A stretch of DNA of 64,000 nucleotides from an uncultured Bacteroidales bacterium. GTDB lineage: Bacteria > Bacteroidota > Bacteroidia > Bacteroidales > FEN-979. Location: contig CAIYUC010000002.1 of NCBI GenBank assembly GCA_903929315.1, positions 7,626 to 71,625 on the forward strand, read 5' to 3'. Within the stretch, counting starts at the first letter, position 1. Every line of letters begins with the position of its first letter. The notes beneath the pieces are model-generated. The model saw only the letters and a list, made by a program, of their open reading frames with translations. It searched no databases and was not told the DNA's origin. Made by a program: the position numbers and the translations under genes. Positions 19,087 through 54,328 of the stretch are shown in pieces.

Positions 19087-19923
19087 CTATTCTTTTTGGA
19101 TTGCTTCAATAACTTCAGTGATGAGCTTATAAACAACAATTTTGAAATCATCCTTATTATTTTGAAACATTTTATCAATCTCCTCCTGAGTAAACTTATC
19201 AAGTTGTTTTTGAAGAGATGCAAGGATTTTCGCTTTCAGAAAATCATTCTTCTCAAGAATTTTTAAAATCTGCTGACCAAGATATCTAGCACCGATTATT
19301 TTCTCGTTGAAAGGATCAGCAAACCAATCATTTACTTTATCAGCATAAATCTCTTCGCCAGCAATCGTAAAATAATGATAGAGTAAATATGTAAAATCGC
19401 TGACATCTCTTTCCCGGATACCAGGATTATCCAACCAGGCGATAAGCTTCAGAATACATAATCCAGGTAGTGTAATTACCTGAAAATTGCCATCCATTTT
19501 AACTGACATTTCGGTAACCTCTTTTGTTCCAAGGACTGTCAGGTAAGTCCACTTTTTTCCTTTGATTCTGACTTCGTTGTTTTTCTCAATTTTCCCGAAT
19601 GGGATCAAATCAACGATAACACCTGACGGAGCATGTAATCGATATGATTCTGGGTCTTCAAGAAATTTTTCAGTTTCAATCAGATATTTTATGATTTCAC
19701 GATATTGCTGTTCATCATTAACCAAAATTGCAAAATCAATATCTGTAGTCATCCGATATGGAGGAAGATCGTTGAGATGTTGCAACCATAAATCCCTGCT
19801 AAGCGCACCAATCAGGAAGTAGTCAATTCCAAATTTGAAAAATGCTTTTTCAAGAGAAACTATCGTAGGACCATATTGGGCTTTAAGATATTTCTCAAAG
19901 TTTTTCTTTAATATATTTTCCAT
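19087..19923 (-). CDS. AbiEii/DUF1814-like nucleotidyltransferase
   Basis: Pol-beta-type NTase motif FLIGALSRDLW...YRMTTDIDFAIL, and a later LKLIAWLDNPGIRERDVSDFTYLL resembling AbiEii helices. 21 nt upstream of the helicase. Confidence 0.65.
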   Translation of the reverse strand: MENILKKNFEKYLKAQYGPTIVSLEKAFFKFGIDYFLIGALSRDLWLQHLNDLPPYRMTTDIDFAILVNDEQQYREIIKYLIETEKFLEDPESYRLHAPSGVIVDLIPFGKIEKNNEVRIKGKKWTYLTVLGTKEVTEMSVKMDGNFQVITLPGLCILKLIAWLDNPGIRERDVSDFTYLLYHYFTIAGEEIYADKVNDWFADPFNEKIIGARYLGQQILKILEKNDFLKAKILASLQKQLDKFTQEEIDKMFQNNKDDFKIVVYKLITEVIEAIQKE

Positions 19924-21022: not shown

Positions 21023-21994
21023 TCAGGATTTCCCGCTCTTATTTGGAATACTATCCCAGGTCCGTTCCATTTCGAGCTGTTGAAAATCTTCAGTTATTTT
21101 GATGTACTTGTTAAAGACACTGTCTTTTATATGACCCGTGGTCTTCTTGATCGCTTTTAAATTCATGCCGAGAATGACACTGTTTGTGATGAATGTTTTC
21201 CGGGCAGTATGATTGGTGATCAGCTTACATTTTGGTTCTGTATGCTCTCTTGCCTTGCCACCGGAATAATCCACATAGGAGACCAGCGAGGTAATTTCAG
21301 CATCAAAACAACAATCTTTGATGTGGTCGTTTATTTTTTGGGCGGAAAGTTTTGGTAATGGATAATTTTCAAGATCTTCATACCTGGCAAGGATCTCACG
21401 TGCAAATTGATTCAAAGAGATGACCTCAGTTTTATGAGTTTTAACAATAGTTTTGAATATCTTGCCATCCTTAATATTTTCTCTTTTCAGGTTATGGAGA
21501 TCGGAAACGCGCATGCCGGTAAAACACATGAAACAAAAAAGGTCTCTCGCCCTTTTCTTCTTGAAGGTATCGAATTCAAAATTCAACAGTAGCATAAGCT
21601 CATCTATTGTCAGGTAAATGACATCTTTCTCGCGCTCTACTGCTTTGAAATCCTTAAAAGTAAGATCTTTGGTATAACCCCGTCTTTGACACCACGTAAG
21701 GAATGCTTTCAGGTTACTGATGATCTTTGCAAAATAGTTATCCTTTGCCTTCCTTTTAATAAAAGCATAAGTTCTAAGATTGTCGAAAAATTTGAAATTG
21801 ATAGAATGGAGATCGACCTTATATTTTGTGTCCTTCTCGAAATCCATAAGAAAATTTTTAAAAGTCCCGTAACAAACGATGGTTCTGTTTGCCCTGATAG
21901 CTTTACTGCTTTCTATATATTCATCCAGGACCTCAAAGAAAGTCCTGTTGGTTTTTCTTTGTTTCCCTGAAGGATTGAAAATAGCATTTTTCAA
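21023..21994 (-). CDS. Tyrosine site-specific integrase (Bacteroidota phage-integrase family)
   Basis: 323 aa. The catalytic region has FCFMCFTGMRVSD (Arg), HTARKTFIT (H-x-x-R) and GHIKDSVFNKYIK (Tyr). Its 5' end faces the tRNA 3' fragment at 22097-22110. Confidence 0.88.
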   Translation of the reverse strand: MKNAIFNPSGKQRKTNRTFFEVLDEYIESSKAIRANRTIVCYGTFKNFLMDFEKDTKYKVDLHSINFKFFDNLRTYAFIKRKAKDNYFAKIISNLKAFLTWCQRRGYTKDLTFKDFKAVEREKDVIYLTIDELMLLLNFEFDTFKKKRARDLFCFMCFTGMRVSDLHNLKRENIKDGKIFKTIVKTHKTEVISLNQFAREILARYEDLENYPLPKLSAQKINDHIKDCCFDAEITSLVSYVDYSGGKAREHTEPKCKLITNHTARKTFITNSVILGMNLKAIKKTTGHIKDSVFNKYIKITEDFQQLEMERTWDSIPNKSGKS

Positions 21995-22096
21995 ATACGC
22001 TTCTGTGGGTGAAATTCAAAAAAATGTATTTTGCAAGGCACTGATAAACAACTGATACAGAAAACTGTAGTTAAATACAGTAAAATATCCATTACC

Positions 22097-22110
22097 CCGG
22101 CTCCGGGTAC
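22097..22110 (+). repeat. att-like 14-nt copy of the tRNA-Leu 3' end (ccggctccgggtac)
   Basis: Identical to 8113-8126. The following ~35 nt (gttcaaatgcgaagtgtaaagtgcgaagt) parallel the sequence after the intact tRNA (5616-5650). Confidence 0.75.
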
Positions 22111-22308
22111 CCGTTCAAATGCGAAGTGTAAAGTGCGAAGTGTAATATAATTTGCACTTTGCACTTTTCGTTTTACACTTTAGACTTTACGTTGGGAACT
22201 TTGATGCAGAGTTAAAAACAAATCTTTTCACTGAATCCAATCTTTGGAAAGAATAATAGTAGGTAGGACTTGGATGATTGAAGCCTTATTTATCAGGTGC
22301 TTTAAATT

Positions 22309-23988: not shown

Positions 23989-24435
23989 GGTATTTATTTT
24001 ATTGCAGCTAAATCCAGGTTGGACGAAGCCGCTTGGTTGTCAGTGTGATAGGGTGGGCAAAAGCAATCTATCTGTTCATGGTGAAGTAAGATTATCCTTA
24101 TTATCATTGTCTTTAAGTACAAAGATATAATTTAAACATATTAAATGTTTGTTTCCTCAAAAAGATCAACCACTTTCGCAAAATCGAGTATAAACTGGCG
24201 GTTAGATATTTCGTCAGAGTAGTGTACCAGTTCAGGTGTAAAGTGCAAAGTGTAAAGTCTAAATTAATTTGCACTTTGCATTTTACACTTTAGACTTTCC
24301 ACATTACACTCACTCTTCCTTCTCCATTAAACATCGGGTATCCAGGATCGAGCTTCTCTTTTTTTCCAATCGCCAGGTTGTATTTCGAAAAAATTTATTA
24401 CATTTGATGCCTGAATTTATAGAAATACAGATAGT

Positions 24436-25560: not shown

Positions 25561-25642
25561 ACTCCCAGATTCAGTCGGCAGTCCGCCACAGGCCTCAAGC
25601 TTCAGGCTTCAGGTAAATAGCGAAATAGCAAAGTAGCGAAAT

Positions 25643-25667
25643 AGCGAAAAACTGTTTCGCTTTTTTT
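25643..25667 (+). terminator. Rho-independent terminator AGCGAAA-aactg-TTTCGCT + T7
   Basis: Stem, loop and T-run read directly. It is embedded in an aatagcgaaatag stutter array. The same hairpin recurs at 34547-34571 and about 41194-41226. Confidence 0.7.
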
Positions 25668-25735
25668 GTTCACACTCGCACTCAGAATACAAACACCACA
25701 CTCACACTTCCACCACACCCAAACCCACACCCGAT

Positions 25736-25751
25736 TTCCGGCTCCGGGTAC
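25736..25751 (+). repeat. att-like 16-nt copy of the tRNA-Leu 3' end (ttccggctccgggtac) preceded by a copy of the tRNA upstream 'cacac' leader
   Basis: 25690-25735 (caaacaccacactcacacttccaccacacccaaacccacacc) parallels 7930-8046. The tRNA body is missing between the leader and the 3' end. Confidence 0.75.
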
Positions 25752-27422: not shown

Positions 27423-27860
27423 TATTTTTCTCCTTTCATGAAATAGTTTAATGGTTTTACTTTTAATAAGGGTTTTTATATGATCGTTAATTGATCTTCT
27501 GTTCAGTGCGAAAAACACAAATCTATCCGCTTATCAATAAAAAGAATTTTTGTCTAAAAACAAAGATACACGATTTTTAATTGTACACCAGGGATAAACT
27601 TATTAATCTCCGGCGAATCCGGGATCATTCAATAGATCGTCCTTAGCGGGATACCTTTACAATCCTGCTTGGCTATTATCAAAACATTCCATTCAATTTT
27701 TCATTTCTTCAATAAAATAAACCACTTTCGCAAAATCAATGATGAAGTCACGGTTGGATATTTCATCAGAATAGTGTAGTGTACGTAATATTTAATTGTC
27801 AGATATTTAATATGATAAACAATATTATTGGTTAAGTAAGATAAAGGGTTTATAATGTAA

Positions 27861-27894
27861 AAAGAGGCTGTCAAAAATAGGTGATAGCCTCTTT
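27861..27894 (-). terminator. Hairpin aaagaggct ... agcctcttt with T-run on the minus strand
   Basis: A 9-bp stem, about 150 nt downstream of the TolC-like stop. Confidence 0.4.
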
Positions 27895-28041
27895 TGTTGA
27901 ATTTTGCTTCACGTATCTGAATTTTCCAATCCGGTTTTACCACCTGTTTCGGGATGATGGTTTAGATGACATTAGAAAAGCCCAAGCATCTGACCACCTT
28001 TCGCTGATTTAAACAGATCATCATACACATCTGATAATAAT

Positions 28042-31000
28042 TTAACTGCCGGTCATGAGCTTGTATTTCGCGAATTTGCTTCGGAACTGGCACTGGGAGT
28101 CAGTGAGGTTGTCCTTCGCCTGCTGCAAAACGGCCTGGACCTCGAGCAGGTCGGAGATCCCGATGATCCCGGCCTTGTAATTGTCCTGGCTGATGCGGAG
28201 GTTCTCAATGGCCTGCTCTACCGATACCTGCGAAACGCCTATCTGATAACGGGTCTCCTCTACTTCATTGGCTGCCTGGCGGATCTGCAATACCAGCAAT
28301 TCGGTGTTTTCCTGAAGGGAGCTTTCGGCCTGCTCGACTTCGATCTGCTGCTTCTTGATCTTGTGACTCCCGGCCCACCAGTCGGTTATTGGGACGCTCA
28401 GGTTTACCATGCCCAGGGCATTGTTGGTGGTCTTGTTCATGATATCGTAGGTAAAACCTGCGCCCACGACTGAGAGCTGGGGCATATATTCGCCTGCAGC
28501 CAGCTTTTTTTGCACCTGTTTTACTTCCACTGCTTTGTTCAGCAAATGGTACTCGCTGCGGTTTTTCACTAGCTGCTCGGGGTCCTGGAAAACTAGGGTT
28601 GCAGACTGCGCATCGGGCGGGGCAGTGAAGACCAGCGTGCTGTCGTACGGCAGACCGATATGCTGGCATAAGGCCCTCCTCGTGAGATTGACCCCATTCT
28701 TCAGCTTCAGCATGTTGCTTTTTAGCTCGTTCTGCTTCAGCTGGACTTTCAGCACATCGTTCTTTTGCACCAGTCCTGCATTGCTGTAGTTGTTTACATC
28801 ACGGTACAGGGAGTCGAGCATGTGCTGGTAGCTTCGTATGGTCTTCTCTTTTTCGCTGAGCGACTGCAGGGTCCAGAACAGCTCTTCGGTCCGGGCCAGG
28901 ACCTCGTCTCGTGTCATCTCTTTCTGGTATACAGTAACGTCTTCGCTAAGCCTCGCAAGCTTGTATCCCCTCCTGATCCTTCCCCCGGCATAAACCGGCA
29001 TGGACACGGTAACAGCTGTGGTGTTCATATAATCAAGCAGACCTATCGAGAGTGCGGGGAAATATGCGAACTGGGTCGGGTTTACAAGCTGGGCCGGATT
29101 TTTACCGTCCCAAACCGGAAGGTTCATCTGGGGTGTTTCGAGTTTCATAAGGTAATCGGCAGAACGTAATGAAAATGCTGCAACGCTGACTTTCGGGAAA
29201 AAGTTGGTGAAGACTTCCTGTTTCTGCTGTTGAGACGCCCGTACCTGCAATTCTGACTCTTTGATCTTGCGGTTGTTTTGCAGGGCAAGCTGCTTGCATG
29301 AATCCAGTGAAATGGTCTGGGCCTGGCCTGTGCTTAGCATTGAGGGAACTGTCAACAGAAAACCAAATAAGATCATTTTTATATTCCGCGGCAAAGTCCA
29401 GAATGGCAGTTTCTTCTCTTTATCGCTGTATGAAACTGAGTACATGACCGGGAGGATGTAGAGGGTCAAAACCATGGAAAACAAAAGTCCGAAACAGATC
29501 ACAGTGCCCAATGGCCCCCAGAGTGGCGAGCGGCTGATGATCATCGGGATAACTCCCACTCCTGCCGCAGCAGAGGTGAGGAAGATGGGCCTCATACGAC
29601 GTTTCCCCGCTGCAATGGCTGCTTCTTTCGTGGTCATTCCCTGGTTCTCTTTCAATTCGCGGGCATAATCGATCAGGATGATCCCGTTCCTTATCACCAT
29701 CCCGCATAAACTGGTGATACCGATGAATGCGGTGGTGCTGAAGGGGAAGTGCATGATCAGCAGTCCGACCACAGCCCCGGGCAGCGTAAGGAGCATTCCG
29801 CTCATGATCAGGAGCGCAAGTTTGGCTTTTCTGAACTGTATCAGCAGGATGAAAAAGATGAGCAGTATGCTTACCCCAAGCGCAATCCCCATGGGTATGA
29901 ACACTTCCTGCATGGCTTCATAATCTCCACCCCAGGCGATGGACGTGCCTTCGGGCAAAGGCAGCTTGTCGATCTGCGGCTTGATCTTATCAAGGATAGC
30001 TGCTGCAACTGCCTTTGGTGTGTTATCGATCATGACCGTGAGCGTGGGGACACCGTTGCGCCTTACTATCGTCCCTTCAGTCCATGAGGGTGTGAAGTTA
30101 GCCATTGAGCGAAGTGGAATGGCCGAAAAACTCATGGGCGAAGTAATATACTGGTCTTCAAGGGTTTTTATATTTTGTTTGGATGACTGATCCTGTTTCA
30201 GCACGACATCTACCGGGTAATCATCCTCCCATATGGTGGTCAGCGGGACTCCGTCAAGCCCTATCATCACCGAGGTAGCCACAAGGCTTTTATAGTACCC
30301 CATGCGGTTGGCTTTGTCACGGTCGAGGTTCACGTTGATATTCTGCTGGGGCTGGTCCCAGTCGCTGCGCACCCATGCGAGTCCGTGGGTTTTGGACAGG
30401 ATCTCCATTACTTTTTTCTCGGTACTGCGGATGTCTTTCACCGAATCTGAAGAGATGCGGACCTCGATGGAAGCCTTGTTGAGCTGCATTGCCAATATCT
30501 TCCATTTTACATGGGCATTGATGAAGTTATCGGAATACCTGGGACTGTAATCGTTCACTATTTCCCTGGTAGCCTTGTCCGACTTGGTGTTGACCAGCAA
30601 CTGGCCGAAGTTCGAAGCCGGCATCTGGGGTGCATAAACGGTATGGAACCTGGGCGAACTGGTGCCAATAAAACTGGTGACATTTGTCACTCTCTTGTCT
30701 TTCAGCAAGATGGATTCCAGGCTGTCGACCACTTTCTGGGTGCATTTCAGGGACGAACCGGTTGGCAGGTATACTTCAACGGCAAACTGGTTTCGTTCCA
30801 TTTCAGGGAATAATTGCTGGTCGGTAAGCTGAAAAAGTAGCACCGACACTACAACCGAACCTACCCCTGTGGCTATGACCAGCCGGGGATGTTTGAATGC
30901 CTTGTCGATCGATTTATCGAACCAGGCCTGTAATAGATCGAGGAAGGACTTTTTGCCCGGTTTTTTCACGTTCTTCAGTCCTTTTTTGATGAATACAAAA

Positions 31001-32475
31001 TTCAGATATGGGACCAGGAACAAGGCAACCAGTATCGAAACGGTCAGCGCAATGGTCACTACCCAGGGAATGGTCTGCATGAATTCGCCGGCTGTTCCGG
31101 GGACCATGAATCCAAGGGGGATGTATGCGGCTAAAATGGCGAGGGTGGCGACAATGATAGGCGCAACCAGTTCCCTGGCGCTTTTTATGGCTGCATGCCA
31201 GGGTGAAAATCCCAGGTCGATCTTTGTCACATGGTTATCGATGATCACAATGGAGTTATCGACGATCATCCCGAGAACCAGGATCAGCGAGGCCAGGGAA
31301 ACCGTATGCAGCTCTATCCCTTTAAAATACATTATGGCCAGGGTGATCATCACCGAGATCGGGACTGTGATCCCGGCAACTGAAGCTACGCGGAGGGGAA
31401 GCAGGATCAGGGTCACCAGGATCACTGCAATGATGGCGATCAGGAATTCGTGAAGGAAATTGTTCACCGAATCGCTTACGTACTTAGGCAGTTCCGATAT
31501 CTTGGCTATTTCAATGCCTGACGGACAATGCTTCATAAAATTATCCAGGACCTTGTCCACATCCTTGCCATACTCCACGATATTGTTGCCCGGTTGCATT
31601 TCGAGCGAGAGCAGTATGGTTTTTTTTCCGTTCTGGCGGATGAAATTACCGGGTTTATCATACTTTCGTTCGATGGTGGCGATGTTCTTAAGTCTCACCA
31701 CGTTGCCGTTGGGGTCGGAGTAAACGATCTGCTCGGCCAGGTCTTTCTCCGATTCAAAATTCGGAGGAAAATGCACCGGCATTACACTGCGGCCGTCATC
31801 GAGCTTACCCGCATAGCTCACCATCCCGTTGGCCTGGTATGAGCCCAGCAGCGTCAGCGATTTGATGTTGTATTCGTTAAGCAGCTCAGGCTTTACATTC
31901 ACAAAGATCTTTTCTTTCTGGAGACCGAAGTGCTTGATCTTGGAGGTAGCCGGGATCTTACGGCATTCCGATTCGAGCTTTTTCAGCTGCTCCTCCAGTT
32001 CTTTATAGCTTTTTGTGTCGGAGGATAAGGTGATGAGCAGTGCCGAGGTATCACCAAAGTCTGAATTGGCGATCAAAGCGGCAACTCCCGCAGGAAGGAT
32101 CATTTTCAGCTCGGCCAGCCCGTGCTTTAATTTGGACCAGAACTGGTCGGCATTCTTTACATCATCATTCAATTCAACGAAAATGTACATGATACCCTCA
32201 CGGGAATAGGAATAGGTCTTGGCCTTTTTTACTTCCTGGTAACCAAAAAGATAATTCTCAACCACGGTAGTAAGCTGTTTTTCCACTTCTGTGGATGTCG
32301 CCCCGGGGAATATCCCAACGATGACCCCCTGACGGATAGTAAATACGGGGAATTCATTACGCGGCATTTTAAACAGGGCGATGATCCCGACGATGATAAT
32401 GGCCGCCGCAATGATCACAACGATGTTGTTGTTTCGCATTGCCTTTTCAATCAGGTTCAATTTCTTGCGTTCCAT
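28042..32475 (-). CDS. RND efflux permease (AcrB/HAE1-like) reading in frame into a TolC-family outer-membrane factor
   Basis: A single 1477-aa ORF. Residues 1 to about 1033 form a 12-TM RND permease. An internal Met at 29376 is followed by a signal peptide (MILFGFLLTVPSMLSTGQAQ) and about 445 aa of TolC-like repeats. No stop separates them (…PRNIK-MILF…). Confidence 0.85.
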   Translation of the reverse strand: MERKKLNLIEKAMRNNNIVVIIAAAIIIVGIIALFKMPRNEFPVFTIRQGVIVGIFPGATSTEVEKQLTTVVENYLFGYQEVKKAKTYSYSREGIMYIFVELNDDVKNADQFWSKLKHGLAELKMILPAGVAALIANSDFGDTSALLITLSSDTKSYKELEEQLKKLESECRKIPATSKIKHFGLQKEKIFVNVKPELLNEYNIKSLTLLGSYQANGMVSYAGKLDDGRSVMPVHFPPNFESEKDLAEQIVYSDPNGNVVRLKNIATIERKYDKPGNFIRQNGKKTILLSLEMQPGNNIVEYGKDVDKVLDNFMKHCPSGIEIAKISELPKYVSDSVNNFLHEFLIAIIAVILVTLILLPLRVASVAGITVPISVMITLAIMYFKGIELHTVSLASLILVLGMIVDNSIVIIDNHVTKIDLGFSPWHAAIKSARELVAPIIVATLAILAAYIPLGFMVPGTAGEFMQTIPWVVTIALTVSILVALFLVPYLNFVFIKKGLKNVKKPGKKSFLDLLQAWFDKSIDKAFKHPRLVIATGVGSVVVSVLLFQLTDQQLFPEMERNQFAVEVYLPTGSSLKCTQKVVDSLESILLKDKRVTNVTSFIGTSSPRFHTVYAPQMPASNFGQLLVNTKSDKATREIVNDYSPRYSDNFINAHVKWKILAMQLNKASIEVRISSDSVKDIRSTEKKVMEILSKTHGLAWVRSDWDQPQQNINVNLDRDKANRMGYYKSLVATSVMIGLDGVPLTTIWEDDYPVDVVLKQDQSSKQNIKTLEDQYITSPMSFSAIPLRSMANFTPSWTEGTIVRRNGVPTLTVMIDNTPKAVAAAILDKIKPQIDKLPLPEGTSIAWGGDYEAMQEVFIPMGIALGVSILLIFFILLIQFRKAKLALLIMSGMLLTLPGAVVGLLIMHFPFSTTAFIGITSLCGMVIRNGIILIDYARELKENQGMTTKEAAIAAGKRRMRPIFLTSAAAGVGVIPMIISRSPLWGPLGTVICFGLLFSMVLTLYILPVMYSVSYSDKEKKLPFWTLPRNIKMILFGFLLTVPSMLSTGQAQTISLDSCKQLALQNNRKIKESELQVRASQQQKQEVFTNFFPKVSVAAFSLRSADYLMKLETPQMNLPVWDGKNPAQLVNPTQFAYFPALSIGLLDYMNTTAVTVSMPVYAGGRIRRGYKLARLSEDVTVYQKEMTRDEVLARTEELFWTLQSLSEKEKTIRSYQHMLDSLYRDVNNYSNAGLVQKNDVLKVQLKQNELKSNMLKLKNGVNLTRRALCQHIGLPYDSTLVFTAPPDAQSATLVFQDPEQLVKNRSEYHLLNKAVEVKQVQKKLAAGEYMPQLSVVGAGFTYDIMNKTTNNALGMVNLSVPITDWWAGSHKIKKQQIEVEQAESSLQENTELLVLQIRQAANEVEETRYQIGVSQVSVEQAIENLRISQDNYKAGIIGISDLLEVQAVLQQAKDNLTDSQCQFRSKFAKYKLMTGS

Positions 32476-34460: not shown

Positions 34461-34537
34461 ATTTCCTCAATAAAATCAACTACTTTCAGTTAATCTGGAA
34501 TGATTCTAAAGTTAGATAATTGGTCAGTTAAGTGTAC
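34461..34537. repeat. 77-bp repeat, second copy of 10852-10928
   Basis: One mismatch by eye (G/T after ctttcag). Followed by the AGCGAAA-tactg-TTTCGCT-T7 hairpin at 34547-34571. Confidence 0.9.
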
Positions 34538-34709
34538 AAGACAAATAGCGAAATACTGTTTCGCTTTTTTTATCACACCCAAACCTGCCGGCAGGCAGGC
34601 CCACACCCTATTGGAGGAAGAGGTATCTATTTAGCACCAATGTCAAAACCAATGCAATTAAAAGAAGCTGAGGAAACACCACCACCAGCGGAGACAACAT
34701 TAGAGAAAA

Positions 34710-37662: not shown

Positions 37663-37876
37663 TTCCCCCAATGAGCGCAAAGCGGCGAATGGCGTACATC
37701 CTTTAAAGTAGACATACCGTTTTAATTGACCACTTTTATTGGACGTTGCACTTTTGCATTTTACACCTTAGACTTTACACTCCGTACCCTAAAAAAGGCC
37801 CTTCTAGCAAGAACTATTATTTGTACAATATTGAATTACATTTGCATTATTGTACAATTTTTTGTATCTTTGCCTT

Positions 37877-39043
37877 ATGATACCAAGAGCCATCTCTGAA
37901 AAAATAACCCAATTAAGTAAAAAATTTCCGGTCATTACGATTACAGGACCCCGTCAATCCGGGAAAACCACGCTGATCCGAAACTTGTTTCCGGATAAAA
38001 AATACGTTTCGATGGAAATACCCGAGACAAGGTTACTGGCTCTTTCCGATCCAAATCAATTTCTGGCCAATTTCCCGGATGGAGCTGTCATTGATGAAGC
38101 ACAACATGTCCCTGATCTTTTTTCCTATATACAAGGGATTGTTGATAACAGGAACGTCCCCGGCCAGTTTATTCTCTCCGGATCGCAAAGCTTTCTGCTT
38201 CATCACAGGATAACCCAGTCTCTGGCAGGCAGGACAGCCCTCTTCCGGTTATTCCCATTTTCAATGGCAGAACTTCAAACGGCGGATATTTCATTTAAAA
38301 CTTATGAAGAATACTTGTTTACCGGTTTCTTTCCAGGAATTTATGACCAGCATATCGATCCCGGAGATTTTTATCCGAACTATATGCAGACTTGTGTGGA
38401 AAGAGATATACGTTCTTTGCAAAACATACAGGATCTGAATGCATTTATCCGGTTTGTAGGATTATGCGCAGGCAGGGTAGGGCAAATCCTTGACCTGACC
38501 TCCCTCGGGAACGATTGCGGGATCAGCGTAAACACGGCAAAAGCATGGATATCTCTGCTGGAAGCCAGTTATTTCATTTTTCTTCTGCATCCGCATTCCC
38601 GGAATTTCTCCAAACGACTTATCAAACGGCCTAAACTCTATTTCCTCGATCCCGGGCTTTGTTGTTCACTTTTACATATTGAAGGCCGGGAACAGCTCTC
38701 CAACCATTATCTGAAAGGAGCATTATTCGAAAATCTTATGCTTCTTGAGTTGCTCAAACGTCTTAATAATCAGGCAAAACAACCTAATCTCTATTTTTGG
38801 AGAGACCATCACGGAACAGAAATTGATCTGATCATTGAAACTGCCGGAGACCTTGTCCCTGTTGAAATCAAATCGGCTCAAACATGGAATCCTGACTTTT
38901 TTACCAACCTTCACCGGTGGAATAATTACGGTAACTATCCGAAGGATCATTCCTTTGTTATTTACGGAGGTGACGAAACCATTACTACTTCCTCCGGCAG
39001 AATTATCAGTTGGAGAGATTTAAATCAGCTTAAGTTATCCTGA
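37877..39043 (+). CDS. AAA ATPase with DUF4143 C-terminal domain
   Basis: Walker A GPRQSGKT, Walker B VIDEAQ, DUF4143-type tail. Paralog of 24436-25560. Confidence 0.85.
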   Translation: MIPRAISEKITQLSKKFPVITITGPRQSGKTTLIRNLFPDKKYVSMEIPETRLLALSDPNQFLANFPDGAVIDEAQHVPDLFSYIQGIVDNRNVPGQFILSGSQSFLLHHRITQSLAGRTALFRLFPFSMAELQTADISFKTYEEYLFTGFFPGIYDQHIDPGDFYPNYMQTCVERDIRSLQNIQDLNAFIRFVGLCAGRVGQILDLTSLGNDCGISVNTAKAWISLLEASYFIFLLHPHSRNFSKRLIKRPKLYFLDPGLCCSLLHIEGREQLSNHYLKGALFENLMLLELLKRLNNQAKQPNLYFWRDHHGTEIDLIIETAGDLVPVEIKSAQTWNPDFFTNLHRWNNYGNYPKDHSFVIYGGDETITTSSGRIISWRDLNQLKLS

Positions 39044-39260
39044 GTCGGCAGTCTGCAGTCAGCAGTTGGCAGACCCAATCCTCACTCTCACACTCCGCGT
39101 TTCGCGTTACGCGTCTCGCGTCACGTTCTTCCATCCGCGTCCCGCGTCATGTATCTGGCATCCGGCATCTGTTTCCGTAATTCGTAATCCCTGCCTGCAG
39201 CAGGCAGGTGTAATTCGTAATCGATTTTATCCGCCCGTCCGCTTGTCCGCCTCGCGTCAC
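39044..39260. repeat. Mosaic stutter block
   Basis: Modules read directly, in order: cagtcgg/cagtcag, caatcctcactctcacac, cgcgttt/cgcgtta/cgcgtct/cgcgtca, ccggcatc, cgtaatt-cgtaatc flanking palindrome ccctgcctgcagcaggcagg, and ccgcccgt/ccgcttgt/ccgcctcg. The cgcg module plus cacgttcttcc recurs at 60757-60815. It starts 1 nt after the ATPase stop. Confidence 0.85.
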
Positions 39261-39299
39261 TTATTAGTCTTTTCATTACCTTTGTAAAAAGTTATCACG

Positions 39300-39584
39300 G
39301 TGATTTGTAACAGGATTTTTTTTAGTGATCATATTATTTCTCAGATGTTCAGGAGAAATATATCTCTGGATGAAGTAAAATTTATTTTAGACAAAGGCGA
39401 AGTAATCAAAGAATACCAAGATGATAAACCATATCCAAGTTTTCTTCTTTTTGGACTTATTGATCTTCGTCCATTGCATCTTCTTGTGGCAAAAGATATT
39501 GAAACGGGAAATTGCATAATGGTCACTGTTTATGAACCCGATAAAAATGTTTGGTCAACTGATTTTAAAACGAAAATCCAATAA
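39300..39584 (+). CDS. DUF4258-family protein (putative toxin)
   Basis: 94 aa from a GTG start 16 nt after a TACCTTTG box. DUF4258-like pattern (FSDHIISQMFRRNISLDEV ... LHLLVA ... VTVY). Paired with a YgiT-type zinc-finger gene. Confidence 0.65.
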   Translation: MICNRIFFSDHIISQMFRRNISLDEVKFILDKGEVIKEYQDDKPYPSFLLFGLIDLRPLHLLVAKDIETGNCIMVTVYEPDKNVWSTDFKTKIQ

Positions 39585-39585
39585 T

Positions 39586-39813
39586 ATGAAATGTGTTATT
39601 TGTAAAACAGGAACAATGCACGAAGGGAAAGTGACAGTTACCCTCGAAAAGAATGGTTCAATCATCCTTATTAAGGAAGTTCCGGCACAAATTTGTGATG
39701 TTTGTGAGCATTATTATTTGGATGAGGCAATAACGGGAGAAGTCTTGAAAAGAGGAAAAGAAGGCCTTTTAAAAGGTGCTGAACTTGAAGTGCTGAAGTT
39801 AAAAGTGGCATGA
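39586..39813 (+). CDS. YgiT/MqsA-type zinc-finger antitoxin-like protein
   Basis: MKCVICKTGTMHEG...AQICDVCEHYYLDE has two CxxC pairs typical of the YgiT-type zinc finger. Starts 2 nt after the DUF4258 stop. Confidence 0.7.
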   Translation: MKCVICKTGTMHEGKVTVTLEKNGSIILIKEVPAQICDVCEHYYLDEAITGEVLKRGKEGLLKGAELEVLKLKVA

Positions 39814-39817
39814 ATTT

Positions 39818-40090
39818 GCAGTCGGCAGTCAGCAGTCGGCAGTCAGCAATCCCAATCCCCACGCTCACACGTCGAGTATCCCTGCCTGCCTGCTGACGCA
39901 GTCAGTCAGGCAGGGAGAATCCAGCATCGAGCATCTGTTTTTACCAGTCACCGATCACCAGTTTAATAATGACGAATCCGGGAATGACGCCTGCCTGCCG
40001 CAGGTTTACCTGCCGAAGGCAGGCAGGGATGACGAATACAATGCTATGAATGTCTTGAATTCGTCACTCGTCATTTTGTCATTCGTGAAT
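39818..40090. repeat. Mosaic stutter block including the composite element M1-M2-M3-M4 and a 70-bp segment inverted at 60644-60713
   Basis: gcagtcggcagtcagcagtcggcagtcagc / aatcccaatccccacgctcacac / gtcgagtatc / ccctgcctgcctgctgacgcagtcagtcaggcaggg, then gaatgac words around the nested palindrome cctgcctgccgcaggtttacctgccgaaggcaggcagg. Confidence 0.9.
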
Positions 40091-40245
40091 TAAAAGAACG
40101 GGCATAAAAAAAGATCTTTCAAAACCATATCACCTTTTACTTTTTGGCGGATTAATGGTAAACCCTGATTTTTGAAGAAGCGGGAAAGCCACCAATAAAA
40201 AAAGTTCACAAAACGTGAACTGAGAAAAAATTAATTTATCTTTGC

Positions 40246-40578
40246 ATGAGAGTTCATCTGATAGAAAAGCAGACCATTCAGGATTATATTGGGGGTCATG
40301 CATCTGGTATAAGTTCTTTTGAGAACTGGTTAACTGCAATAAAATATGCAGATTGGCATACACCGGCAGATATTCAAAAAACCTTTGGGTCAGCCGGTTT
40401 GTTAGGAAACGGGAGCAACAGGGTTGTATTCAATATTGCAGGAAACAAATACCGCGTGATATGTAAATATCATTTTGGTTCTGAAAAGGTTCACTTGTTT
40501 GTCTGCTGGATTGGTTCGCATATGAAATATGATCAACTCTGTAAACAAGGTGATCAATATACTATCAGTGCATATTAA
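40246..40578 (+). CDS. higB: HigB-family toxin (mRNA interferase)
   Basis: MRVHLIEKQTIQDY...WLTAIKYADWHTPADIQKTFGSA...NRVVFNIAGNKYRVICKYHF is the HigB (PF09907-type) pattern. A TATCTTTG box ends 2 nt before the ATG. Confidence 0.8.
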   Translation: MRVHLIEKQTIQDYIGGHASGISSFENWLTAIKYADWHTPADIQKTFGSAGLLGNGSNRVVFNIAGNKYRVICKYHFGSEKVHLFVCWIGSHMKYDQLCKQGDQYTISAY

Positions 40579-40588
40579 TTCATTTGAA

Positions 40589-41035
40589 ATGAAGACATTA
40601 AAATACACCATTATAAAATCCAGAAAGCAATACAACGAGTATTGCAAAACGCTGGAGGAATTGCCGGGAAGCAATGATAACAATAAAGATGGCAGGGATG
40701 AGGTTGAAATGCTAACGTTATTGATTGAGAAATGGGATGCAGAACATTCCAGGTTCAAAGATGCTGATCCCATTGAGTTGCTTCATTCTTTAATGCATGA
40801 TCGGGATATGAAAGCAAAAGACCTAGCCGGAATATTAGGGGTGAGCAAAGGTCTGGTTTCTGATATTTTACATTATAAGAAAGGGTTGTCAAAGGAAATA
40901 ATCAGGGTGCTGGCGCATGAATTTAAGGTATCACAGGAAGCCTTTAACCGGCCGTATAATTTAAATATTTCCGGGAATACTAAGGTTCGGGGAACCAATG
41001 GTGTTAAAACACGCAAAATGCTTGAAATGGTTTAA
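40589..41035 (+). CDS. higA: HigA-family HTH antitoxin
   Basis: The N-terminal helical part plus HTH (MKAKDLAGILGVSKGLVSDILHYKKGLSKE) is typical of HigA partners of this HigB type. Confidence 0.8.
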   Translation: MKTLKYTIIKSRKQYNEYCKTLEELPGSNDNNKDGRDEVEMLTLLIEKWDAEHSRFKDADPIELLHSLMHDRDMKAKDLAGILGVSKGLVSDILHYKKGLSKEIIRVLAHEFKVSQEAFNRPYNLNISGNTKVRGTNGVKTRKMLEMV

Positions 41036-41038
41036 TGA

Positions 41039-41226
41039 AGTCGGCAGTAAGCAGTCCGCAGTCCACAGTCGGCAGCCCCCAATCCCCACGCTCACACATC
41101 GAGGATCCAGTATCCCTGCCTGCCTGCTGACGCAGTCAGTCAGGCATGGATTCCGATTCCGGGTACCATTCAAATAGCGAAATAGTAAAATAGCGAAATA
41201 GTGAAATACTGTTTCGCTTTTTTTGT
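41039..41226. repeat. Mosaic stutter block M1-M2-M3-M4 + tRNA-Leu 3' fragment (41149-41166) + aatagcgaaatag array/terminator
   Basis: gattccgatTccgggtac matches the 3' end of tRNA 5530-5613 with 1 mismatch. It is followed by cattcaaatagcg, as at 5614 and 22111 (gttcaaRtgcg). Confidence 0.8.
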
Positions 41227-41261
41227 TTCGATTCTCGAGTTGATGAGATGTAGTTAAAACG

Positions 41262-41651
41262 TCATCTTTTGATGAATTTTTCAAATTCCAGCATCTTGTC
41301 ATTTGTTATACGCACAAAATATACTCCGCCGGGCAGGCGTGATATGTCAATTTGTGTTTTTGGCCCGGTGACTATAAGTGTTATAAGCTGCTGACCGTTT
41401 AGGTTCATTATGGATAATTGTGTCTGCGTGAGGGATGCGGATGTTTCGATAGTTATTTCACCGGTTGCGGGGTTAGGATAAACAGTTATCTGTGAAGATT
41501 GAAGTTCAATTATTCCGGCGGGAGCATCGTAATACATAACAGTAGCTTTGTAACCATTAAAATAATCTTCATAAGCTACAAAAGGTTGACCAGCCTGGTT
41601 GAAGGCAAGGCTGGCGTACCCTGTGATATCCTTAATCGTTTTTGTATTCAT
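41262..41651 (-). pseudogene. C-terminal remnant of a T9SS-sorted protein fused to a ~55-bp integrase gene fragment
   Basis: The C-terminus VYPNPATGEITIE...GGVYFVRI is a T9SS domain. The first 11 codons (MNTKTIKDITG; DNA 41617-41670) match the interior of the integrase pseudogene (43500-43555, LGMNTKTIKDITGH). Confidence 0.7.
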
Positions 41652-43394: not shown

Positions 43395-44374
43395 CTATTT
43401 CTTCTTTACCGGAATATTATCCCGGGTCCTTTCCATTTCCAGTTTTTTAAAGTCTTCAGATATTTTGACGTACTTGTTAAAGACACTGTCTTTTTTATGA
43501 CCTGTGATATCCTTGATCGTTTTTGTATTCATACCAAGCATGATACTGTTTGTGATGAATGTTTTCCGGGCAGTATGGTTGGTGATCAGTTTACATTTTG
43601 GTTCTGTATGCTCCTTTGCTTTGCCGTCTGAATAATCCACATAGGTGACCAACGAGGTAATTCCTGCATCAAAACAACAATCTTTAATGTGGTCATTTAT
43701 TTTTTGTGCAGAAAGTTTTGGCAATGGATAATTTTCAAGATTTTCATACCTGGCAAGGATCGCACGTGCAAATTAATTCAATGGGATAACCTCGGTTTTA
43801 TGAGTTTTAACAATTGTCTTGAAAATCTGGCCGTCCTTGATATTTTCTCTTTTCAGGTTATGGAGATCTGAAACGCGCAAGCCGGTAAAACACATAAAAC
43901 AAAAAAGGTCTCTCGCCCTGTTCTTCTTGAAAGTATCGAATTAAAATTCAACAGTAACATCAGCTCCTCTAATGTCAGGTAAATGACATCTTTCTCGCGC
44001 TCTACTGCTTTGAAATCTTTGTAAGTAAGATCTTTGGTATAGCCCCTTTTCTGACACCAGGTAAGGGACGCCTTCAGGTTACTGATGATCTTGGCAAAGT
44101 AATTATCCTTGGCTTTTCTCTTGATAAAAGCATAGGTCCTTAGATTGTCAAAAAATTTAAAATTTATGGAATGGAGATTAACCTTATATTTTGTGTCTTT
44201 CTCAAAATCCATAAGAAAATTTTTGAAAGTCCCATAGCAAACGATGGTTCTGTTGGCTCTTATAGCTTTACTACTCTCTATGTATTCATCAAGAATCTCA
44301 AAAAACGACTTGTTTGTCCTTTTTGGTTTCCCTGAGATGCCGAAAATCTCATTCTTCAAATATGATTCCTGCAT
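43395..44374 (-). pseudogene. Tyrosine integrase pseudogene (paralog of 21023-21994, multiple frameshifts)
   Basis: Two ORF pieces (43853-44374 N-terminal, 43395-43724 C-terminal) align almost residue-for-residue with the intact integrase. The frame is lost after ...LLLNF and in the 43725-43852 segment. Confidence 0.88.
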
Positions 44375-46182: not shown

Positions 46183-46896
46183 GGATGGTATTCATTAACC
46201 GGTGATTTGATCTTCATCTCTTTCAGGAAATAAGATCATTACAATAATAACAATTATTTTCAATACCAGAAAGAGTTAAAATTGTGCAGGAATTGAATGC
46301 CCGGAAGAATTGTAAACCCTTGGTGTTGCATTGTTGAAATTTATGTTTGTCTTCTTTTTCCGACATGTGCAATAAATCCTGGAATTTTGGTCTCCTCATG
46401 TAAATCGCATTAAGAGATGAAACCAATCTAATTAAACGAAATCTTTTGCTATTTCACTCCTTACATTACCCGTCAGGGAAAAGATGAACTGAAGCGCGCA
46501 GGCCTTGATCCGTGATAATCTTTACAATGAGTTGTTTTTCTTACCCCTATCATCCTGAAATTTCCATTTCCCCAATAAAATCAACCACTTTCACAAAGTA
46601 ACAAAATAACAGAGTAACAAAGTGACAAAGTTATAGAGCATAAAAAAATACTCAGAATTTGTCAATACCGGGTTTTTGGAAACATTGATATAAAAAAGAA
46701 GAACATTCATCATCGGTAAGAGATGAACATGATATTGACGTAATAATGTAATAACTTTGCTAATGGCATTCTGATGTATGATATTAAAAAATGGGCAGTT
46801 AACTTTTTTTAGGGGGGATTTACACTGTAAAAAAGGGAGGGCTTAGGACGGAAAATCCAATTTTTTCTTAAATATAAAAAACAAGGAGGATCATAT

Positions 46897-49699: not shown

Positions 49700-50260
49700 T
49701 TACTTTTTAATTATTTTCAGCGAAGCGATAGTTTTATTGTTGCTTAGCACTTTCAAAATATATATGCCCGCAACACGATTGGTTAAATCAATCGTATTTA
49801 TACCATTTACTGCTGTTTGATTGTGAACTAAAACTCCAGTGGTGTTATAGACTTCAATTCGTGCATTGGCGGTTAGCTTTGGAAGAACGACATTAAATAT
49901 TCCATTTGTGGGATTTGGATAAACTGCTAAGTTTTCTTCTGGCAGTTGAGCAATACCCGATGGATTCTCCGAATAACGACAAAGCTGGTAGTCGGACCAA
50001 AAGCTATATGCAGCTTGAAAATAAACTGCGTTGTTAAAGGGGACCCAAGCTTGAAAGGGATAAAAAGGAGTTTCCCCGGAGGTACTGGGTGGTGTCGGAC
50101 AGACGGTTCCCGCGGCAGTACCATCGGAAATCCAAACCTGATTTTGATTCACACTATCGGTGGCGCTGAAATAAATTTTTCCATATATGAAGAAAAATAC
50201 TTCAGCTCTTGTGATACCAACTTTCGCGGAATATAATAATAATACACCCAAGCAACCCAC
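49700..50260 (-). pseudogene. C-terminal remnant of a T9SS-sorted repeat protein
   Basis: The ELW-x-DGTAAGT-type repeat remnant (VWISDGTAAGT) and the T9SS domain (VYPNPTNGIFNV...GIYILKV) are present. There is no signal peptide or N-terminal body. The 5' part overlaps 50187-50765. Confidence 0.6.
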
Positions 50261-50765
50261 TCCTGAGCAACAGGTCTTGATAGATGAATACTTGGAATCC
50301 TTTACACCGAAAATCTGTTGCCTTGAATCCTGCTGGAGTCAAGCTATGACAGATCCTCCTGGTGTAAAGCCTTTCATTAAAGCCATCCCGTGGATGATAG
50401 AAAAAGAAATAGGTTATGCCTACAGGATTATCTCGAGCGGTCATGATTTGGAGTACTATGTAAAGTATCCAACTGGCATAATTTGGAATGATCCGCACCT
50501 CGCGGGTATTGATGTTTTTTATTTGGCTGCCCATGGGAAACCCCGTGGATTAATGACCTCTGTTAAGGATATAGAATCAGAGGGATTAATCAAAGCGTGG
50601 AATGGTCTGGAACGATATTTTAATATTGTCTATTTCAGTGGGTGCGAAGTCCTTGGTGGGGCAAAGGGTCAAGAGTTTGTGCAAGAATTTAGAATAAAGC
50701 GGCTTCAGGAAATCCATAAAAAATTCGGCTTCACTACCCAGGAAGAATTGCAGCCTAGTAGTTAA
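50187..50765 (+). CDS. Hypothetical protein with caspase/CHAT-like His...Cys dyad pattern
   Basis: A hydrophobic strand + HG (DVFYLAAHG), then 37 residues later a hydrophobic strand + C (NIVYFSGCEVLGG). No family recognised with certainty. Confidence 0.45.
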   Translation: MKKNTSALVIPTFAEYNNNTPKQPTPEQQVLIDEYLESFTPKICCLESCWSQAMTDPPGVKPFIKAIPWMIEKEIGYAYRIISSGHDLEYYVKYPTGIIWNDPHLAGIDVFYLAAHGKPRGLMTSVKDIESEGLIKAWNGLERYFNIVYFSGCEVLGGAKGQEFVQEFRIKRLQEIHKKFGFTTQEELQPSS

Positions 50766-50777: not shown

Positions 50778-50870
50778 TAGTCAGCAGTCGGCAGTCAGCA
50801 GCCCCAATCCCTATTCTCATATCGAGTATCGAGGATCAAGCATCGAGTATCCGAGATCTGGTATCCGGCA
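50778..50870. repeat. Mosaic stutter block (gtagtcagcagtcggcagtcagcag / ccccaatccctattctcat / atcgagtatcgaggatcaagcatcgagtatcc)
   Basis: Same module order as 39818 and 41039. Begins just after the stop of 50187-50765. Confidence 0.85.
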
Positions 50871-53906: not shown

Positions 53907-54328
53907 ATAATTGTTGATTTAAAATGATGTCAAAACTATTCTACCTGAACAGTCAGTGTGCTCCATTAAATACCTCATTTGTCAATAACTTGTCCGGGCA
54001 AAACCACAAAAGTCGGAACTTACGATTGGGGAATTGGGGGAAAAGTATTTATATCACTACTGAAATGCAAAGATACTGGTTTTTATTGGACTATGGTTTA
54101 TCATAGTCAAAGAATCCCAAAAGTCTAAGTCATGATACTCGATGCTCGATATTAAAGACACAAGCCTCAATTCCACACTCACATCGAGAATCCCTGCCTG
54201 CCTGCTGACGCAGTCAGGCAGGCAGGCAGTATCGAGCATCGAGTATCTGTCTTTCCACCAGTTCATAAAATATTTCTTACTCCGGCGTATTACCTTTTAG
54301 TTGAAAGGTGGATTAATGTGAAAAAATT

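Follow-up and report, generated by a model that had tools for sequence, protein, structure and literature searches.

Intergenic heptamer repeats have been known since 1990, and their origin and function are not understood. In that year Mazel and colleagues reportedly described the short tandemly repeated repetitive (STRR) heptanucleotide sequences of heterocystous cyanobacteria, and Elhai et al. are said to have recognized, in 2008, small dispersed repeats (SDR) in Nostoc punctiforme as small hairpins inserted in heptamer arrays. Here we analyze arrays of this type in a 64-kb stretch of DNA from an uncultured Bacteroidales bacterium (contig CAIYUC010000002.1; the whole stretch is called the window), with a target region made up of three spacers (39044-39299, 39814-40245, and 41036-41261) and the four genes between them, which form two toxin-antitoxin cassettes, all on the + strand. 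The long simple sequence repeats of Mrazek, Guo and Shah (2007), as relayed in PMC4679880, have 5-11-nt units, with heptanucleotides predominating in scattered lineages and slippage proposed. MacGregor 2015 (PMC4679880) reported TAACTGA and other heptamer repeats in Beggiatoaceae, Cyanobacteria, and five Bacteroidetes, and also described, from the intergenic DNA of Elizabethkingia, Gramella, and Aequorivita, "larger assemblages of heptamer repeats" that are not found in close relatives; a role in rearrangement was suspected, and binding of S1, Csp, or CsrA was proposed for the TAACTGA repeats.

The arrays of the window fit the STRR or long-simple-sequence-repeat kind. With STRRs they share tandem heptamers of several families, abundance in intergenic DNA, lineage specificity, variation among relatives, and the lack of a known function; 7-nt tandem units, abundance confined to non-coding DNA, and unit-number variation are all found here. 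The host, however, is not a cyanobacterium and belongs to another phylum, octamers are mixed in, fixed composite trailers stand at cassette ends, and the canonical STRR words CCCCAGT, TTGGTCA, and CAACAGT have no tandem copies here. As with the long simple sequence repeats, units that are not a multiple of three are excluded from coding DNA; as far as that survey is relayed, it concerned long near-perfect arrays, whereas ours are short (2-7 units), degenerate, and mosaic. The MacGregor repeats likewise form intergenic heptamer sets close to start and stop codons; the trailer, the differences in cassette order, the palindrome insertions, and a far higher array density set the present case apart, and TAACTGA is never tandem in it. 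The first-pass annotation of this DNA had proposed STRR-like, multi-family intergenic heptamer and octamer arrays in a layout like that of bacterial interspersed mosaic elements (BIME), which our analysis supports. Its statement that no description of such an architecture was known to it is too strong: multi-family heptamer arrays define STRRs and long simple sequence repeats, and MacGregor 2015 (PMC4679880) already reports heptamer assemblages in Bacteroidetes. Beyond that paper, our literature searches returned no description of the architecture in Bacteroidales.

We favor, with a probability of roughly 0.55, an explanation in three layers: slippage arrays, trailer junctions of cassettes, and secondary palindrome insertions. 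In the first layer, a lineage of Bacteroidales-type bacteria has intergenic DNA rich in tandem 7- or 8-nt units, and these arrays would grow, shrink, and homogenize in place through slipped-strand mispairing or unequal exchange. In the second, some arrays are fixed in a trailer of ~120 nt at the ends of toxin-antitoxin, AAA_14/DUF4143, and other cassettes, which are stacked in islands at a tRNA-Leu gene, and the dispersed trailer and array modules mark homology breaks between related genomes. In the third, CCTGCC...GGCAGG palindromes (16-38 nt, the 34-nt form being the most prominent) were inserted later into the arrays, precisely, without duplication, and mostly after ..TC; in other Bacteroidales the same 34-nt element is found within tRNA 3' fragments, at TC^GA of the T-loop, beside small GIY-YIG genes. 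Some arrays also serve, on this view, as arms of hairpins and terminators.

Tandem Repeats Finder returned 81 rows for the whole window, 33 of them with period 7, 11 with period 8, and a further 10 with period 14, 16, 21, or 42; nearly all lie outside open reading frames (ORFs), and the higher-order periods are more identical than the base period. In non-coding window DNA the match at lag 7 was 0.310 versus 0.268 +/- 0.0036 in dinucleotide shuffles (z 11.8), with further signals at lag 8 (z 6.1) and lag 14 (z 4.5), whereas coding DNA showed only the 3-nt codon periodicity (lag-7 z -4.1). For the three target spacers the lag-7 match was 0.392 versus 0.255 in shuffles (z 9.3), accompanied by rises at lag 14 (z 6.0) and lag 4 (z 4.7), the latter because of CCTG/CAGG runs; the four genes between these spacers gave no lag signal. 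A lack of lag-7 enrichment over shuffles had been named beforehand as grounds for abandoning the proposal, and the enrichment observed leaves it standing.

A strict family rule (13 families, at least two in-register units, at most one mismatch) labeled 10.9% of non-coding and 0.46% of coding DNA, an enrichment of about 25-fold. By this rule families are present in 27 of the 36 spacers of at least 60 nt, the other nine being array-free, and the word families together with generic period-7/8 arrays make up 13% of non-coding DNA. All of the word families listed by the first-pass annotation are present, as are the arrays it placed in the pth/ctc/prs block; its view that nearly every spacer consists of arrays holds for the enrichment and overstates the case as to sole composition, given the nine spacers without them. 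It was also right that arrays face their own complements, as do GTGYRAA/TTYRCAC arrays at 5620-5700, 22120-22190, and 24236-24310, and GAATGAC/GTCATTC arrays at 39968-40091. In the facing arrays at 5620-5700 the complement units stand in the same order, yet the paralogues at 22103 and 24220 do not share this arrangement, and the idea was dropped.

The layout of the target region is given below, with capital letters for array families:

37850-39043, +: AAA_14/DUF4143 ATPase gene (Pfam), its TGA stop overlapped by an A array
39042-39072, +: A array (GAGTCGG CAGTCTG CAGTCAG CAGTTGG CAG)
39073-39093, +: L motif (ACCCAATCCTCACTCTCACAC), CACAC-type, found after every A array
39096-39149, +: D arrays (CGCGTTT/CGCGTTA/CGCGTCT/CGCGTCA), in a segment 80% identical to 60757-60826
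39153-39169, +: B-type units (CATCTGG CATCCGG CATC)
39176-39222, +: H array (CGTAATT CGTAATC / TGTAATT CGTAATC), split in register by a 19-nt palindrome
39190-39208, +: this 19-nt palindrome, CCTGCCTGCAGCAGGCAGG, with a 5/7 match across the junction
39229-39251, +: M octamer array (CCGCCCGT/CCGCTTGT)
39277-39284, +: TACCTTTG, before the DUF4258 gene, a match to TAnnTTTG, the Bacteroidota -7 promoter consensus
39300-39584, +: DUF4258 toxin (Pfam)
39586-39813, +: MqsA/YgiT-type antitoxin (Pfam)
39818-39847, +: A array, 5 nt after the MqsA-type stop
39848-39870, +: L motif of the MqsA-type trailer
39871-39880, +: first B units of the MqsA-type trailer
39881-39914, +: 34-nt imperfect palindrome CCTGCCTGCCTGCTGACGCAGTCAGTCAGGCAGG, between ..GAGTATC and GAGAATC.. 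of the B array
39915-39935, +: rest of the B array
39936-39942, +: T-run of the trailer
39943-39962, +: I octamer array (ACCAGTCACCGATCACCAGT)
39968-40091, +: C arrays (AATGACG type) and their facing complement
39990-40027, +: 38-nt CCTGCC...GGCAGG palindrome splitting the C arrays in register
40057-40091, +: facing complement array (GTCATTC type)
40128-41035, +: HigBA cassette, including the shared leader and promoter-like TATCTTTG (40237-40244)
40246-40578, +: HigB (Pfam)
40589-41035, +: HigA-type helix-turn-helix antitoxin (Pfam)
41039-41075, +: A array, 3 nt after the HigA stop
41076-41097, +: L motif of the HigA trailer
41098-41114, +: B units of the HigA trailer
41115-41148, +: second copy of the 34-nt palindrome, one mismatch
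41149-41168, +: tRNA-Leu 3' remnant (GATTCCGATTCCGGGTACCA), 19/20 to the 3' end of the tRNA-Leu at 5530-5614
41172-41224, +: J octamer array (AAATAGCG x4.6)

Beyond HigA lie an ORF with a type IX secretion system (T9SS) tail on the opposite strand and then a Fic gene. Comparison of the three spacers with the window by BLAST showed them to be pieced together from segments of 40-100 nt, every one of which has a relative at another place:

39818-39916 and 41051-41150: 81% identical
39827-39880 and 50779-50830: 85% identical
39820-39880 and 39043-39103: 80% identical
39868-39942 and 54180-54254: 89% identical
39962-40061 and 60719-60621 (inverted): 93% identical
39094-39164 and 60757-60826: 80% identical
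39210-39252 and 61624-61666: 95% identical
41172-41227 and 25615-25670: 93% identical

The trailer, about 120 nt long, is made up, in this order, of the A array (CAGTCGG), the L motif (CACAC), the B array (CATCGAG), a T-run, and the I array (TCACCAGT). Each of the five A arrays in the window lies 0-16 nt past a stop codon and in sense orientation, and the genes before them represent four families (two AAA_14 genes, an MqsA-type gene, HigA, and ORF 50187-50765). Outside the target region we found these further versions:

25573-25751, +: A (short), CAGGCTT, J (with terminator), and CACAC arrays, in this order, after the second AAA_14/DUF4143 gene, then a tRNA-Leu remnant
50779-50865, +: A-L-B trailer after ORF 50187-50765, lacking the 34-nt palindrome (empty site)
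54165-54254, +: trailer fragment L-B-palindrome-B-T-run, 89% to 39868-39942

A recurrent order of word families after stop codons had been noted at first pass. The order itself is real, its copies being 80-89% identical by BLAST, but the paralogy of the segments means that the trailer is one dispersed segment, not an ordering rule for independent families. The palindrome had been counted as one more family in the series; it proves instead to be a discrete 34-nt insertion, and copies of the trailer exist without it.

The window has 7 sites with palindromes of the CCTGCC...GGCAGG type, which come in forms of 16, 19, 34, and 38 nt; the 34-nt form lies at 39881-39914, 41115-41148, and 54193-54226. 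Removing CCTGCCTGCCTGCTGACGCAGTCAGTCAGGCAGG at 39881-39914 joins TCGAGTA TC to GAGAA TCCAGCA TCGAGCA and restores the heptamer register. The register is likewise restored at 54193, at 39190 (19-nt form, CGTAATT array), at 39990 (38-nt form, AATGACG array), at 60654 (an inverted copy of the 38-nt form), and at two loci on other contigs, L009 and L039 (handles beginning with L denote such loci). The 34-nt palindrome has the target ..TC^GA.. and made no duplication; empty trailers that read ..ATC/GAG.. straight through are found at 50779, in L113, and twice in L104, and the L115 trailer keeps the palindrome with two changes. The shortest form gives a further filled and empty pair:

34584-34599, +: 16-nt mini-palindrome CCTGCCGGCAGGCAGG interrupting CACACCCAAA^CCCACACCC, which is intact in the paralogue at 25716-25733

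Across 7 array contexts (window, L009, and L039) the 7-nt left and right flanks match at 5-6 of 7 positions, as opposed to 0-2 of 7 in T-loop contexts. We considered, and rejected, the idea that heptamer arrays arose because the palindrome duplicates 7 bp of its target: a 5-6/7 flank match is the normal similarity of neighboring units, and the idea is also undercut by the T-loop contexts, which show no duplication.

An exact 25-mer of the 34-nt palindrome was found at 13 loci from about 9 other Bacteroidales-type genomes. Most of these place it between TC and GA of GGTTC^GATTCC, the T-loop of a tRNA 3' fragment, in either orientation and with no flanking duplication at the T-loop, and the window copy at 41115 is likewise followed immediately by a tRNA-Leu 3' remnant, the first bases of which are the T-loop GA. 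At no fewer than seven other loci the palindrome stands directly 3' of a GIY-YIG ORF, in tandem cassettes at tRNA genes; in L001, for example, a tRNA-Phe is followed by a GIY-YIG gene and a tRNA 3' copy with the palindrome, and the gene and palindrome-bearing copy are repeated twice. The GIY-YIG genes of L001 (5990-7040), L002, L007, L008, L010, and L011 encode 84-102 aa and form tandem mini-cassettes behind the tRNA, ending in a tRNA 3' copy whose T-loop holds the 34-nt palindrome; the T-loop of the functional tRNA is intact. This arrangement looks like a tRNA-targeting homing-type element. A tblastn search of the window found no GIY-YIG gene. The 25-mer was also absent from the viral contig collection, and carriage by phage was rejected.

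The palindromes appear to parallel the Nostoc SDRs. Both are tiny dispersed hairpins, often in heptamer arrays, whose precise insertion and mobility are read from filled and empty sites and for which there is no known enzyme; they differ in sequence and host, and in the 16-38-nt length, CCTG/CAGG tetramers, and T-loop/GIY-YIG location seen here. A second likeness is to the repetitive extragenic palindromic (REP) sequences of Proteobacteria, organized as BIMEs or as REPINs with their REP-associated tyrosine transposases (RAYT): these are also imperfect palindromes of ~35 nt in ordered mosaics after stops and between convergent genes, with a possible role in termination or mRNA stability. The extragenic 20-40-nt imperfect palindrome of REPs is found here, but our mosaic consists mostly of tandem heptamers, not palindromic units. 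No GTAG-type 5' tetranucleotide accompanies the palindromes, whose flanks (..ATC/GAG.., ..ACG/GAT..) are alike only in ..TC. The search for a RAYT or IS200/IS605-type Y1 transposase that the first-pass annotation had suggested found none among 60 window ORFs scanned against Pfam. As the window encodes no Y1 transposase, the REP/RAYT likeness remains an analogy.

How arrays change was read from orthologous spacers of the following block:

2677-4324, -: core pth-ctc-prs block, with B, F (AGGCAAT), and N arrays in spacers 2677-2802, 3391-3533, and 4176-4324

Both unit-number variation and gain or loss of arrays, for which the first-pass annotation had suggested looking, were found between relatives. 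In pth, ctc, prs, and nuoN the identity of L014 and L015 to the window is 89-93%, and genomes this close in coding DNA differ in the array modules that a given spacer holds. Between L015 and the window, the pth-nuoN spacer is collinear and about 90% identical, save for a 49-nt gap of exactly 7 heptamer units. In the ctc-pth spacer the GATGCTN (CATCGAG-type) array differs by one unit (7 nt) between the two; next to it the window has a TATTGCC array, and L015 a GGTGAAT array followed by a CTGACTG/CCGACTG array. The content of the prs-ctc spacer differs in each of four relatives. Non-orthologous sites hold matching modules too: L015 931-959 agrees with window 39848-39820 in 29/29 bases, and L014 764-800 matches the AAATAGCG array at window 41172-41208. 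L014 865-893 in addition matches window 25613-25585.

Arrays of the ctc 5' leader, below a conserved TACCTTTG box, keep their place and order across many genomes. All units of one array change together, from the GGTGAAGT type to the GCTGATGA type or the reverse, and in L015, L017, L022, and L029 the facing complement array changes in step (fold z -2.0 to -5.6). In other relatives the leader measures 25-39 nt and holds no array; L028, L036, and L050 have no arrays there. Before ctc, the TACCTTTGCAGCCC promoter box is conserved in L015, L017-L025, L029, and L038, and leader length (25 to 184 nt) is set only by the number of arrays held; the box is not found in the window, L014, or L016, where ctc may be co-transcribed with prs. 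Array unit number therefore changes between relatives, and slippage or unequal exchange would be the mechanism, since whole-unit indels, higher-order periods, and concerted change are its predictions.

Array richness is a clade trait. We took 80 metagenome loci coding for relatives of ribosomal protein L25 (ctc), with their flanks: at L25 identity of at least 65%, period-7/8 arrays were present in 31 of 41 pth-ctc-prs loci (0.82 per kb), versus 8 of 39 loci below 65% (0.06 per kb), and array density rises with L25 identity (Mann-Whitney p 1.3e-8, Spearman rho 0.64). The host itself shows Bacteroidota features, namely T9SS sorting or secretion-tail domains (Pfam) and TAnnTTTG boxes, and the closest database relatives of the repeat elements are metagenome-assembled genomes of Bacteroidales and Rikenellaceae.

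For the second layer, HigA and MqsA-type antitoxin homologues were traced to their contigs. An A array again lies 3-6 nt past the stop in L104, L112, and L113 (HigA) and in L115 (MqsA-type); L104 (twice) and L113 repeat the order A-L-B-T-run-I, and L115 has A-L-B-T-run. The same cassettes, with the same promoter-proximal sequence, have array-free ends in L105, L106, L116, and L117, and in L105, L106, and L116, where no arrays surround them, they end in a plain hairpin without a trailer. Arrays past the stop in L114 and L118 come from other word families. The TACCTTTG box is kept upstream of the homologous cassettes in L116-L118.

Neighborhoods, too, differ between these contigs. The L104 HigBA cassette has 84% DNA identity to window 40128-41063 and sits at a different genomic place, within DNA orthologous to window 7096-7894, with A arrays on both sides in direct orientation. 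Similarity between this copy and that of the window stops inside the A array, and at the equivalent place the window has one A unit, beyond which the downstream sequence is again the same. Located at 39176-39251 in the window and 95% identical to 61624-61666, the H-M module stands directly before HigBA in L112 and before the DUF4258 cassette in the window and L115, where that cassette has yet other neighbors. Chimeric joins through 30-nt arrays are unlikely because the contigs are k=141 assemblies from organisms ~15% diverged from the window. Cassette order thus differs between genomes, with homology breaks inside the CAGTCGG array. Because trailer copies stand at such breaks, the trailers and modules are most likely recombination junctions for the gain, loss, and reordering of cassettes; the exchange at them could be homologous or site-specific.

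Five tRNA-Leu 3' ends lie on the + strand, at 5597, 8110, 22093, 25734, and 41149, compared with 0.18 expected. The series is as follows:

5530-5614, +: intact tRNA-Leu(CAA)
8043-8127, +: degraded copy (Rfam 39 bits versus 58)
22093-22110, +: tRNA-Leu 3' remnant
25734-25751, +: tRNA-Leu 3' remnant
41149-41168, +: tRNA-Leu 3' remnant, as listed above

An integrase gene at 21023-21994 lies beside the remnant at 22093, and its decayed convergent paralogue at 43395-44374 is the only other integrase gene in the window. The two marks of a tRNA island, tRNA 3'-end direct repeats and a nearby tyrosine integrase, are therefore found together, which indicates serial island integration at one tRNA-Leu; the target region is the right end of the fourth tRNA-Leu island. 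Integrative islands of the NBU type target the tRNA-Leu 3' end. An Rfam scan of the window reached the gathering score solely with two tRNA-Leu genes and, at E up to 1, gave no credible match within 38900-41400.

Integrons and the rAID-1 recombinase-associated gene arrays of Bacteroidales resemble this layout in their small co-directional accessory genes, in a related repeat that starts from the stop codon, and in content and order that vary by strain; they differ in that the cassettes here have promoter-like boxes of their own and that a tandem-array mosaic takes the place of an attC hairpin. In Ross et al. 2019 (bioRxiv 10.1101/471110), rAID-1 is recognized by a XerD-like recombinase at the 5' end, with an identity to BF9343_RS08045 of 44% or more, then at least two co-directional low-GC genes with repetitive intergenic sequence. 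The co-directional genes and repetitive spacers are present, but a 5' recombinase is not, and we set rAID-1 aside. An integron was set aside as well, there being no IntI at the head of the array, where the upstream gene encodes a Fib_succ_major protein.

Several other explanations deserve weight. Exact-protein look-ups (JGI, ENA, Logan) found the same locus in five other assemblies, from different samples and pipelines, that are 99.9-100% identical to the window with the arrays included. Several of those contigs stop exactly at repeat boundaries (41041, 40125), so assemblers evidently struggle there, which is the one point in favor of an assembly or polishing artefact; such ends are expected for multi-copy sequence. 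The artefact that the first-pass annotation had feared, or a chance pattern, is effectively refuted by five assemblies that agree base for base, by same-family arrays in orthologous loci from dozens of other samples, and by z values of 9-12 against dinucleotide shuffles without any coding signal. A weightier, though still rather unlikely, alternative is that the arrays are selected cis-acting elements whose words are recognized, either as protein binding sites or as terminator, attenuator, or mRNA-stabilizing blocks. The same words do recur across genomes and sites, and the ctc-leader arrays persist in place and order below the TAnnTTTG box with both hairpin arms co-changing (L015, L017, L022, L029). 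At 41192-41224 the last AAATAGCG units form the 5' arm of a 12-bp hairpin followed by a T-run, with the terminator-like site at 41192-41218, array coverage is highest in convergent spacers (21%, versus 12% in divergent and 11% in tandem ones), and compared with shuffles the RNA of spacers 39814-40110 and 41036-41240 folds at z -4.7 and -4.5; the MacGregor 2015 proposal of S1, Csp, or CsrA binding to TAACTGA repeats points the same way. Against this, one and the same family occurs in both orientations to transcription, in 5' leaders, 3' regions, and divergent spacers; content turns over completely between genomes ~90% identical in their genes; the relatives L028, L036, and L050 manage without arrays in the ctc leader; and many arrays have neither a facing complement nor a fold signal (39044-39290; L019, L021, L025).

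We consider it unlikely that a dedicated mobility system makes and moves the modules, the arrays then being products or footprints of an enzyme and not of slippage. Such a system could be a site-specific recombinase whose att site, in integron fashion, would be the CAGTCGG array or the trailer, or an array- and palindrome-inserting nuclease or transposase (RAYT, IS200/IS605, GIY-YIG). It would account for a trailer that begins, attC-like, right after the stops of unrelated genes, for the L104 cassette between direct A arrays, and for identical modules at non-orthologous sites. The palindrome, precise, duplication-free, after ..TC, and in both orientations, behaves in the style of a single-strand Y1 transposase, its position 3' of GIY-YIG ORFs at tRNA genes recurs at those seven or more other loci, and the window does hold a tyrosine integrase with a decayed paralogue. 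The window has, on the other hand, no Y1 transposase, no IntI-type integrase by the array, and no GIY-YIG gene; attC core sites (GTTRRRY/RYYYAAC) are absent from the three spacers; the cassettes bring promoter-like boxes of their own; arrays also lie between core genes, where there is no cassette; and whole-unit indels are what slippage predicts. More speculative still, and improbable in our estimate, is that the CAGTCGG-led trailer is the attachment site of an unrecognized Bacteroidales cassette-capture system. A dedicated enzyme would then excise and re-insert promoter-bearing defense and toxin-antitoxin cassettes at heptamer arrays, and the heptamer vocabulary and CCTGCC palindromes would be products or footprints of this machinery rather than of slippage. 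One enzymatic origin could in that case lie behind the heptamer repeats of all three groups in which they have been reported, namely cyanobacteria, Beggiatoaceae, and Bacteroidetes.

The three-layer explanation accordingly has to be held with several points that weigh against it. Slippage alone explains neither the unit size of 7 or 8 nt nor the reuse of a small vocabulary at unrelated sites, as in the 29-nt identical alternating array. Identical canonical units are shared between loci in 69 heptamer pairs (versus 5.3 +/- 2.4 in a composition-matched null) and 28 octamer pairs (versus 0.5), but part of this sharing comes from orthologous spacers, through shared ancestry, and so is not independent evidence. 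The junction role is plausible and draws on four or five metagenome contigs, none with an empty site that is clean on both sides. Imperfect and only 21-37 nt long, the A arrays offer little length for RecA-dependent exchange, and a dedicated recombinase may have a part in it. No mobilizing enzyme was found in the window, and the three 34-nt copies in the window could represent one insertion followed by trailer duplication. Spacer 39044-39290 shows no unusual fold (z -0.44), and because of this and of the arrays in divergent spacers and 5' leaders, a terminator role is not general. Finally, the source genome is seen over 64 kb only.

Whichever explanation holds, this lineage is an unusually dense and structured case, with a shared vocabulary, a trailer, cassette reshuffling, and a conserved tiny palindrome. 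It turns vague "simple repeats" into specific, testable junctions and tells where to seek recombination intermediates, transcript ends, and the mobilizing enzyme. In practical terms, metagenome contigs break at these repeats, so that accessory genes of such genomes will be recovered with a bias.

Arrays of related appearance were also seen elsewhere. Three IMG/VR contigs labeled viral (L099, L100, and L101) are full of multi-family heptamer arrays, with GAATGCT, CCCTGAC, GGGACTC, CGAAAAA, and other families, so the architecture is not confined to Bacteroidales. Either the CAGTCGG/CAGTCAG 19-mer or the AAATAGCG array occurs in five IMG/VR contigs (L099-L103) of 59-65% G+C, the CAGTCGG/CAGTCAG carriers among them being L099-L101; by a rough estimate, this sharing of words across phyla could be chance among many arrays, transfer being the alternative, and we did not build on it.

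Other repeated units and genes of the window may be recorded here. About 100 nt of upstream sequence (..ATATCACCTTTTACTTTTTGGCGGATTAATGG..) is common to the HigBA cassette and ORF6N-domain genes (sites 40065-40162, 60861-60960, 54262-54310, and 11920-12090), so the cassettes also have a common 5' module. A 77-nt dispersed repeat, two copies of which are 99% identical, lies at 10852-10928, 24151-24227, 27703-27779, 34461-34537, and 46558-46593; it probably takes in the end of a small ORF that is itself repeated on the - strand (e.g. 27701-27943), another cassette-like unit. The second tRNA-Leu island contains a defense cluster (16027-20917) in which a TOTE-type archaeo-eukaryotic primase-helicase fusion (1012 aa) stands beside an AbiEii/AbiEi toxin-antitoxin pair. 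Genes of the 23S_rRNA_IVP four-helix-bundle family occur at 5676-6089, 6440-6793, and 14171-14554, each between array-rich spacers. This is the family of the Avd proteins of diversity-generating retroelements, and STRR-rich cyanobacteria also have many members of it; the window showed no reverse transcriptase. At 28042-32475 a single 1477-aa ORF combines a full AcrB-type resistance-nodulation-division pump (ACR_tran) with two C-terminal outer-membrane-factor (OEP) domains and is either an unusual fusion or the result of a lost stop codon. Lastly, a 24-nt unit (TCCGGAAT-N4-TGGCCTACTTT..) is repeated 3.8 times in tandem at 62281-62372, with a 48-nt higher-order period, upstream of the gene for a type I restriction-modification specificity subunit (62874-63896), and this array may be iteron- or operator-like.

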